From Escherichia coli (GTDB lineage Bacteria > Pseudomonadota > Gammaproteobacteria > Enterobacterales > Enterobacteriaceae): a DNA stretch of 64,000 nucleotides. Position numbers and translations under genes: made by a program. Below are positions 57,768 to 58,585 of this stretch, piece after piece (the first letter of the stretch is position 1; each line of letters starts with the position of its first letter). The notes beneath the pieces are model-generated. The model saw only the letters and a program-made list of their open reading frames with translations. It had not been told where the DNA came from and made no database searches. The stretch is taken from the NCBI RefSeq assembly GCF_009931435.1, contig NZ_CP043414.1. One strand, given 5' to 3'.

Positions 57768-57983
57768 AGGTGTATTGCTCAATCTTCGAACGGGGGGAGG
57801 ATTGTAGCAGAATCGCATTTGAATGTGACCGAGTGAAAACCGCTAACCGGATGGCTGCGGATGTTTAAATCAGAGAGGGAAGGCCGAAACCAGAGTTCAT
57901 CATGAATCCATTAGACTTAGAAAATATCGGGTCGTAACGTTGTGTTATTACTTTTTCAGAGTTTACTAAGGAGAGGTTTACTC

Positions 57984-58433
57984 GTGGCGATTAATTTCAG
58001 CCCTAAGGTTGGTGAAATACTGGAATGCAACTTTGGTAACTATTCTGTTAGCCAGAATGGACAGTTCAGCACGACGTATTACGATGGCCGCATTCCACCT
58101 GAGATGATAAAAAATAGGTTGGTTGTCGTGCTCAACGGAAAAATTAATGGCAACGCATGTATCGTCATTCCATTATCAACCACTCGCGACCATGACAAGT
58201 TAAATCGTGGAATGCATGTTGAAATAGCCAGTAATGTTATCAATGACCTGCAATTCTTTGATCAGCAGATACGTTGGGCTAAAGCCGACCTGGTACAACA
58301 AGTCAGTCGAAACCGATTAAACAGAGCAAGGACTTATCGGGGGTATCTTAATCAATGTTTGCCACATGAGTTGGTTGCAGACATACAGAGGGCAGTCATC
58401 AAGTCAATCAATGCCATATCGCTCATAAATTGA
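57984..58433 (+). CDS. MazF/PemK-fold toxin-like protein (probably the K-12 yifN locus equivalent)
   Basis: GTG at 57984 with aaggag SD 10 nt upstream. Translation aligns by eye to MazF/Kid motif order: KVGEILECNF (GDLIWVDF), KNRLVVVLN (RPAVVLS), ACIVIPLSTT (MCLCVPCTT), C-terminal LPHELVADIQRAVIKSINAISLI (APEELQLIKAKINVLIG). No antitoxin-sized ORF adjacent. Confidence 0.7.
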   Translation: MAINFSPKVGEILECNFGNYSVSQNGQFSTTYYDGRIPPEMIKNRLVVVLNGKINGNACIVIPLSTTRDHDKLNRGMHVEIASNVINDLQFFDQQIRWAKADLVQQVSRNRLNRARTYRGYLNQCLPHELVADIQRAVIKSINAISLIN

Positions 58434-58585
58434 CAATAAAATCACCATCCCCGATAATGACTCTGTAGCCCATAGAGGCCCTAAGTTTTCTCCCCCTTGA
58501 GGGACCTGCGAAGCCCGGATTTTCCGGGCTTTTGCCATATATGTCCCCCCTCCCTGACTGACAATTTTTAATTCAAGGCACGATC

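Follow-up and report, generated by a model that had tools for sequence, protein, structure and literature searches.

The interval between rep and ppiC was analysed in a 64,000-nucleotide stretch of Escherichia coli DNA (contig NZ_CP043414.1; the whole stretch is called the window below), and the subjects of the analysis are the MazF/PemK-fold gene yifN and a small RNA (sRNA) gene directly downstream of it. The gene order in the window, rep (−), yifN (+), ppiC (+), ilvC (−) and ilvY (+), is that of an E. coli-type chromosome segment. A sequence-only reading had described the toxin-like gene as solitary, with a gap of 152 base pairs (bp) before ppiC that left no room for a MazE-sized partner. 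The gap is indeed too small for such a protein, but it is not empty, since it contains a conserved, separately promoted sRNA gene (58465-58533) and thus encodes the one conserved partner of the family. The features of the locus are as follows, with lengths in nucleotides (nt) or amino acids (aa).

57942-57983, plus strand: possible N-terminal extension of yifN, from an upstream in-frame GTG that would give a 163-aa isoform; 57942-58433 is the longest open reading frame (ORF) listed.
57968-57976, plus strand: Shine-Dalgarno sequence AAGGAGAGG for the 57984 start, read from the sequence.
57984-58433, plus strand: yifN coding sequence (CDS), 149 aa plus stop, MazF/PemK fold, GTG start as in the PGAP annotation of the closest genome.
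58038-58085, plus strand: variable β1-β2 loop insertion of YifN, residues 19-34 (NYSVSQNGQFSTTYYD), 16 residues left unaligned to E. coli MazF by hhalign.
58430-58458, plus strand: σ70-type promoter of the sRNA, TTGACA-17 nt-GATAAT, 11 of 12 consensus positions, the best in the region.
58465-58533, plus strand: sRNA gene of about 70-79 nt, found with covariance model R1; the K-12 counterpart is ecr3777 (d+).
58468-58479, plus strand: hairpin unit 1, GCC / CAUAGA / GGC, 98% of cells paired, one pair with a GC-to-CG swap.
58491-58504, plus strand: hairpin unit 2, UCCC / CCUUGA / GGGA, three of the four pairs changed on both sides.
58510-58533, plus strand: intrinsic terminator and U run, a 10-bp helix, 99% paired, seven pairs compensatory.

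The start of yifN was taken from the closest genome, which is 99.5% identical and in which the PGAP start is the in-frame GTG equivalent to 57984; the RefSeq/PGAP name there is 'type II toxin-antitoxin system PemK/MazF family toxin'. A GGAGAGG Shine-Dalgarno core lies ahead of this start at 57970-57976, and purine runs resembling a Shine-Dalgarno sequence occupy the same position in homologous loci. Initiation signals for yifN at the annotated start and at an upstream in-frame start were reported in a Ribo-RET preprint (bioRxiv 10.1101/520783), and the GTG at 57942 would be that upstream start. The intact ORF between rep and ppiC had been recognised correctly, but the earlier start at 57819 was derived from the longest rep ORF and does not stand, and the upstream spacer is 216 bp by the PGAP rep start (57767) and not 165 bp. 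The longest rep ORF (690 aa, start 57818) extends 17 codons beyond the PGAP rep, whose start is equivalent to 57767, and a site resembling a promoter of rep (GTCACA-17 nt-TACAAT, including a TG; 57829-57801, minus strand) is located inside the stretch that had been counted as upstream of yifN.

The suggestion that K-12 carries yifN between rep and ppiC was right, and the K-12 copy is a pseudogene: yifN of K-12 BW2952 is flagged as frameshifted, and alignment showed a 1-bp deletion. Frameshifted yifN is limited to some lineages, of which K-12 is an example.

The sRNA of the window reads GTAGCCCATAGAGGCCCTAAGTTTTCTCCCCCTTGAGGGACCTGCGAAGCCCGGATTTTCCGGGCTTTTGCC from 58465. Covariance model R1 matched the window at 58465-58541 with 75.8 bits, the sole strong full-length match in the 64 kb. 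The −35 hexamer of the sRNA promoter overlaps the yifN stop codon TGA (58431-58433), and in most homologous loci −35- and −10-like hexamers were seen by eye at equal spacing from the RNA 5' end despite differing sequence. No terminator lies between yifN and the sRNA, and the terminator at 58510-58533 ends both the sRNA and the yifN transcript.

For covariance model R1, 27 distinct copies were aligned, giving two short hairpins followed by a terminator. The structure statistics come from a model-based alignment (A5) of 42 copies (38 distinct), which is an alignment fitted to the structure; in it 96% of cells are standard pairs, and 11 of the 17 pairs are changed on both sides. None of 500 shuffles matched the observed pairing, and shifting the partners by 1-3 columns reduced pairing to 28-60%. 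Covariation was found mostly in the terminator (7 of 10 pairs) and in hairpin 2 (3 of 4 pairs), and an alignment made with MAFFT only gave the same picture with weaker numbers. The sequence of hairpin 1 is nearly invariant, with GGC/GCC and CCC/GGG versions seen by eye in other lineages. In the window, hairpin 2 contains five C (58492-58496) compared with four in the closest genome (L001; L numbers denote our locus records), K-12 and Superficieibacter, and the register of stem and loop is shifted by one base.

The two hairpin units are alike (CCC-loop-GAGGSC; mean z 2.2 against shuffled controls), recur with a period of about 25 nt and by eye covary within lineages. Distant YifN-like genes of Haemophilus and Vibrio are followed by two perfect direct repeats of 15-17 nt spaced 24-25 nt, each a small hairpin, and then by a terminator; in Haemophilus the repeats are preceded by a TATAAT-like box. 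Since the units are alike and the distant relatives carry perfect repeats, the sRNA is a tandem repeat of two units whose sequences have degenerated along the E. coli branch. Tandem Repeats Finder reported no ToxI-like repeats in the window, and a repeat search gave short chance pairs only. With Rfam at permissive thresholds, the best match in the window was rnk_pseudo (22 bits against a gathering threshold of 55, E=0.37), driven by the terminator, and no match covered the sRNA element in five other loci. Neither a tRNA nor a transfer-messenger RNA was found.

The K-12 counterpart of this RNA is expressed. Romero et al. described, by RNA sequencing and northern blot, a new K-12 sRNA 'downstream of yifN on the same strand' (PMC4681348), listed in their Table S5 as ecr3777 (d+), 79 nt, MG1655 3957925-3958004, between ppiC and yifO; it had also been seen by Conway et al. 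2014, as noted there, and was reported without a proposed function (PMC4681348). After conversion of coordinates via the ppiC start, one end of ecr3777 is no more than about 4 nt away from the predicted 5' end, and the other is at the terminator. The locus and strand are thus the same as here, whereas the earlier report presented only a new sRNA, and the papers searched offer neither a conservation analysis nor a link to yifN nor a function for it. In the open-access literature no paper was found that connects yifN with a partner RNA or reports a toxicity test of YifN; as far as that literature shows, the components were known separately, and their pairing, its breadth and the proposed mechanism are new. 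Since K-12 expresses the sRNA, the sRNA alone is harmless.

To examine conservation, homologous loci were collected (53 from species-representative genomes, plus further contigs and plasmids). Comparison of the flanks across genera revealed no conserved DNA upstream of yifN. The block downstream of yifN shows 88-92% identity in Photorhabdus, Pantoea and Pseudomonas plasmids, against only 55-73% for the protein itself, and partial, shorter matches to it were found in Serratia, Xenorhabdus, Chimaeribacter and Intestinirhabdus. Covariance model R1 was matched beside every YifN-family gene tested (34/34 loci, namely 31 species-representative genomes, the window and two plasmids), once per locus and with 40-92 bits, and gave no strong match in the yifN-less allele. 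Most loci have the RNA downstream of yifN and on its strand. The Shewanella copy is inverted and converges with yifN, and in Massilia and Herbaspirillum the RNA is divergent, about 800 bp upstream of yifN and on the other strand, with two copies in Herbaspirillum. Linkage that survives such rearrangement argues for a trans-acting gene product and not for a mere 3' untranslated region (UTR) or terminator.

For the reverse test, metagenome and viral contigs were scanned with a degenerate RNA pattern, which gave 42 locus entries. Among these, 36 were real copies, and all 36 had yifN, intact or frameshifted, directly upstream. The six other entries, from five contigs (L066 with its duplicate L096, L086, L090, L101 and L105), were rejected as chance matches in GC-rich sequence with neither a terminator nor a model match. 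The RNA was therefore never found apart from yifN (34 protein-first loci, 36 real RNA-first copies), and among the loci examined none had an intact yifN without the RNA.

In complete E. coli genomes, the CDS was present in 4015 of 5426 (74%) and the RNA likewise in 4015 of 5426; all 4015 carriers have a full-length RNA, and 4000 of them a full-length CDS. Among the records of the plasmid collection, 97 contained the RNA and 132 the protein, with the hosts similarly distributed, and the two were adjacent in the examples examined. The yifN-sRNA segment (about 0.73 kb; window 57768-58585) is a presence/absence polymorphism in E. coli, about a quarter of the complete genomes having instead an unrelated 86-bp spacer between rep and ppiC, as in strain CT30. 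The promoter regions of rep and ppiC thus differ between yifN-carrying and yifN-less alleles. The module of Superficieibacter occupies the same rep-ppiC site. The gap between the sRNA terminator and ppiC (window 58540-58570) is without about 46 bp that are present in K-12 (L002, about 2345-2431) and most E. coli; because the missing piece is flanked by CTGACAATT direct repeats, the loss looks like a repeat-mediated deletion.

For a protein antitoxin, ORFs of at least 20 aa around yifN were listed, and the flanking ORFs of about 40 homologous loci were compared by all-against-all BLASTP. No MazE/PemI-sized ORF flanks yifN in the window, and no protein neighbour is conserved across the roughly 40 loci, the neighbours varying by genus and clustering only among close relatives. 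A Pfam scan of candidate upstream neighbours gave no antitoxin family, and ORFs abutting yifN, where present, had either no Pfam match or a replication-type match (HTH_36/DnaD_N). A 44-aa ATG ORF antisense to the sRNA and the yifN 3' end (58404-58538, minus strand) is probably not a gene, its ATG being absent in Superficieibacter (L013). The earlier statement that no protein antitoxin is adjacent was thus borne out in both the window and the family. With no MazE, PemI, AbrB or ribbon-helix-helix gene beside any YifN-family locus, the YifN locus does not come under the definition of a type II toxin-antitoxin system, which calls for a protein antitoxin.

YifN is a member of the MazF/PemK superfamily by sequence and by fold. 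The only significant Pfam family was PemK_toxin (PF02452; E=9e-11, 42.4 bits against a cut-off of 23.1, residues 37-141). An AlphaFold2 model was built from the 38-sequence YifN family alignment (predicted local distance difference test score, pLDDT, 76; predicted template modelling score 0.70), and in a Foldseek search of this model against the PDB the top 47 matches were all MazF/MoxT/YdcE-type toxins, 45 of them at E<=0.001 and the best at about 1e-5, with probability 1.0 and target-normalised template modelling scores of 0.7-0.8. The type III toxin CptN (E=5e-3) and CcdB followed at ranks 48 and 49. The structure-prediction check proposed in the sequence-only reading therefore agrees with the fold named there, and the long insertion noted between the first two conserved blocks was also confirmed: the 16 unaligned residues (19-34) fall in columns that are variable across the family alignment, and the model is of low confidence around them (block means of 51 and 46 over residues 21-40; pLDDT <50 at 20-22, 31-35 and 37-41). 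NCBIfam and the PADLOC defence models gave no match to YifN. PHROG 15698, a phage protein family, matched YifN at E=3e-32, and members are labelled 'YifN (PemK superfamily)' in the source databases. Among 1.84 billion representative proteins, the family comprises 532 clusters (50% identity) at E<=1e-3 and 31 at E<=1e-30.

Catalysis by E. coli MazF depends on the pair R29 and T52, and the mutation E24A is attenuating. The residues P7, G10, C15, G18, E40, K43, R45, N51, P63, S65, W98, V107, S108, R111 and L112 are invariant in 38 YifN proteins, and hhalign placed E40, R45 and S65 on E24, R29 and T52 of E. coli MazF, although this is a weak match (probability 13%); the MazF sequence used was verified against PDB 3nfc and 5ck9. 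Because the alignment is weak, catalytic competence of YifN is rated only as likely.

The YifN family is under strong purifying selection, with a dN/dS (ratio of nonsynonymous to synonymous divergence) of 0.03-0.1 between species. Where pairs have a yifN dS of 1.2-1.7, only 2-7% of the positions of the RNA body differ, so that the RNA evolves far more slowly than the synonymous sites of yifN. The earlier suggestion of an inactivated orphan does not fit the window, because the ORF is intact, the family has this low dN/dS and the residues aligned with the MazF catalytic residues are invariant. Frameshifted or truncated yifN with an intact RNA was observed in K-12 and in 12 of the 21 E. coli-like loci from metagenomes; many protein clusters are truncated as well, and 17 of 60 evenly sampled E. 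coli loci are 1 bp shorter with the RNA intact. One-sided decay of yifN in this manner is what is expected of a toxin and its antidote.

Further loci of the family show how the module varies. In Pseudomonas sp. QS1027 (L024, 1980-2181), a P1-type C4 antisense RNA (84 bits), the a1/b1 target of that RNA and an isrK-like match occur some 900 bp ahead of yifN, and the module is therefore beside a phage/plasmid immunity region. On the IncP-7 plasmid pCAR1 (L012, record 79041-93487), it stands in a long co-directional array of small hypothetical genes that also contains an orphan N6-DNA methylase, phosphatases and a GNAT acetyltransferase, a layout that recalls the accessory or anti-defence regions of plasmids; on haemolysin plasmids the module lies between IS91 copies. 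In Herbaspirillum and Massilia (L036, 1977-2219; L039, 2131-2214), YifN is 213-214 aa long with a C-terminal extension of about 60 aa, yifN is preceded by a gene of the HTH_36/DnaD_N type, and the two sRNA copies of Herbaspirillum are in tandem. In Chimaeribacter (L017, 3490-3501), the yifN ORF (166 aa) extends 12 nt into the sRNA and its stop codon lies in the hairpin 1 loop, so the arrangement of spacer and promoter is compressed.

More distant relatives were also observed. The YifN-like gene of Vibrio sonorensis (L054, 2808-3011 and 3549-3589; 181 aa) has a 67-aa upstream ORF without a Pfam match that overlaps its start, and a two-repeat RNA lies downstream of the gene. This locus may be a transitional system or one of three parts. 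In Vibrio phage 10N.239.311.A09_PE001 (L108, 2501-3000; a 13-kb Vibrio element, Vinavirales), a PemK-like gene 27% identical to YifN comes after cro-like and LexA/S24-like genes and is followed by tandem GAGGTCATTGAAG-type repeats, with a weak R1 match. A distant clade of YifN-like proteins (137-146 aa) without the loop insertion occurs in Alphaproteobacteria, a Planctomycetaceae metagenome-assembled genome and some Gammaproteobacteria (L045, L046, L055-L059, L065). Conserved non-coding stretches ending in terminators follow these genes, alike in L046 and L056 and in L045, L057 and L059, which suggests that the distant clade has other RNA partners.

Taken together, yifN and the sRNA very probably form one functional module. 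Because the protein has a MazF fold, has no protein antitoxin and is always accompanied by a strongly promoted repeat RNA, a protein-RNA toxin-antitoxin system is the interpretation we favour, and we see about an even chance that the sRNA is a type III-like RNA antitoxin of a MazF-fold ribonuclease (RNase), YifN; both ideas raised earlier, an RNA antitoxin and a repurposed fold, were reasonable. The analysis established the gene and its fold, the lack of a protein partner, the RNA with its expression and structure, the strict linkage of the RNA to yifN and purifying selection on both, whereas the RNase activity, the toxicity, the direct contact between RNA and protein and the biological role are inferred. 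In the proposed mechanism, YifN would be a MazF-fold endoribonuclease with an enlarged variable β1-β2 loop. The sRNA would be made from its own strong promoter, and the yifN transcript presumably carries the sRNA as its 3' end too, because no terminator separates them. Given a near-consensus sRNA promoter and no comparable promoter for yifN, the RNA would be in excess over the protein. The sRNA would bind the YifN dimer directly, with one hairpin unit per subunit or per RNA groove, and would keep the nuclease inactive as type III RNA antitoxins do. If the locus were lost or sRNA synthesis stopped, the labile RNA would decay and the stable nuclease would be freed, and the freed YifN could bring about addiction to a plasmid or island, or abortive infection.

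Several observations weigh against an RNA antitoxin. The layout departs from every known type III system, the sRNA coming after the toxin gene, with its own promoter and with just two degenerate units, and no processing site is evident in it. A helix between unit 1 and unit 2, which is possible because the units are alike, is 79% paired, about as well as hairpin 2, and minimum-free-energy folds of single sequences switch between the local hairpins and this inter-unit helix, although the inter-unit helix suits the divergent subgroup less well than two local hairpins. In the yifN upstream region, no promoter-like site with at least 9 of 12 matches was found on the yifN strand. On the protein side, phmmer and the YifN family profile found no MazF match among PDB sequences, so that the link to solved MazF structures comes from the fold search only, and the hhalign match behind the catalytic residues is weak, as given above. 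The K-12-type frameshift is probably a single event, which makes the asymmetry of decay partly non-independent. Finally, the RNA is well conserved in lineages with a dead yifN and the abundance of ecr3777 depends on the growth medium (PMC4681348), and for these two reasons the RNA could have a job of its own.

The rival that fares best is a dedicated ribonucleoprotein that is no toxin-antitoxin system, in which YifN binds or processes the sRNA, or the sRNA is a cofactor or specificity element of YifN, and the complex has other RNAs as its targets; phage defence, anti-defence and plasmid establishment are examples of what it might serve. We regard this as unlikely, yet worth serious attention. 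It would explain the linkage and co-conservation, which are equally strict under it, and it suits the accessory mobile-element settings (the pCAR1 array, the IS91-flanked haemolysin plasmids and the P1-type C4 RNA region), the match to phage family PHROG 15698, and the fact that K-12 keeps and expresses the sRNA though its yifN is dead. However, frequent independent loss of yifN with the RNA kept is better suited to a harmful protein than to an essential partner, no PADLOC defence model matches, no target is evident, and a MazF fold with invariant catalytic-type residues is most simply read as a toxin nuclease. A bolder form, to which we attach little credence, would make the sRNA an obligate cofactor that programs the MazF-fold nuclease, either supplying specificity or sensing a phage or plasmid factor that binds or degrades the RNA, whereupon YifN would be released. 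If that were true, it would be a new mobile RNA-dependent RNase or defence module on conjugative plasmids, prophages and in about three quarters of E. coli strains.

Base pairing offers another explanation, according to which the sRNA would act in a type I-like manner and repress yifN translation or destabilise the mRNA. The U/C-rich linker of the sRNA (UUUUCUCCCC) could pair with a Shine-Dalgarno sequence, and in Enterobacterales the codons of the conserved RWAK motif have a complement in UAGCCCA at the sRNA 5' end; in the window this is CTGTAGCCCA (58463-58472) against TGGGCTAAAG (58275-58284). In Superficieibacter, Chimaeribacter, Pantoea and Photorhabdus, too, the best prediction of pairing fell on the RWAK site. 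Nevertheless, predicted sRNA-mRNA duplexes were no better than shuffled controls (z about 0) and their sites differ by locus, and in the Pseudomonas plasmid copies the complementarity was by eye not at the same site, the best predicted sites lying elsewhere. The RWAK complementarity could be an inherited chance. In most loci the RNA is on the yifN strand and hence no cis-antisense RNA, and the antisense complementarity to toxin mRNA that marks type I systems was not found. Regulation by base pairing is therefore improbable in our judgement.

That YifN is truly solitary (without activity, under tight repression or neutralised by an unlinked factor acting in trans), with the downstream element a terminator, 3' UTR or passenger sRNA, is likewise very doubtful: the missing protein antitoxin, the frameshifts in K-12 and other lineages and the frequency of solo toxin genes in genomes (PMC2701414) would agree with it, but a plain terminator would not keep a promoter and two additional hairpins that are 88-92% identical between genera, nor stay linked when inverted or shifted upstream, the ORF is intact in a family under purifying selection, and the RNA was never found away from yifN.

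The toxin-antitoxin interpretation bears on a gene that has been ignored, since its routine annotation is that of a type II toxin lacking its antitoxin and the K-12 copy is a pseudogene. Viewing yifN and the sRNA as a module gives the orphan E. coli sRNA ecr3777 a hypothesis of function, and it accounts for an apparently unguarded MazF-type nuclease in 4015 of 5426 complete E. coli genomes and on pCAR1-like plasmids. It also indicates that 'solo toxin' calls made from ORF searches alone can miss RNA partners, as the distant YifN-like genes also precede small repeat RNAs.

Compared with the type II systems MazEF, PemIK and Kis-Kid, YifN has the same toxin fold and conserved residues aligned with MazF E24, R29 and T52 (in a weak alignment). 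In contrast to those toxins, it carries the 16-aa β1-β2 loop insertion, and its family is small and separate. In MazF the β1-β2 loop lies over the RNA groove, and MazE displaces it.

YifN also resembles the solitary MazF-mx of Myxococcus xanthus, a MazF-family gene without an adjacent antitoxin gene (PMC2701414). The difference is that yifN has a tightly linked RNA gene. MazF-mx is reportedly controlled by an unlinked protein, MrpC.

A conserved structured RNA beside PemK-family genes, the Firmicutes pemK RNA motif, was reportedly described by Weinberg et al. in 2017; it is reported to lie upstream of the gene and to be cis-acting. The present RNA differs from it in occurring in another phylum, and neither the window nor any of five homologous loci was matched by an Rfam family, that motif included.

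A further parallel is with the type III systems ToxIN, CptIN and TenpIN, whose toxins are endoribonucleases with a Kid/MazF-like core, the core fold that YifN shares. As in type III, the toxin gene is linked to a non-coding RNA of tandem units with no protein antitoxin (34/34 and 36/36 loci), and the system occurs on both plasmids and chromosomes. CptI is said to have few repeats as well (Rao et al. 2015). Unlike type III, YifN stands outside the ToxN, CptN and TenpN families and is structurally nearer to canonical MazF than to CptN; the type III RNA precedes the toxin with an intervening terminator, whereas here it follows yifN and has its own promoter; and the type III repeats are exact units of 36-45 nt, whereas those here are degenerate units of about 25 nt. 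If the sRNA is indeed the antitoxin, yifN and its RNA would constitute a new type III family, with a toxin of canonical MazF-type fold and a different gene layout.

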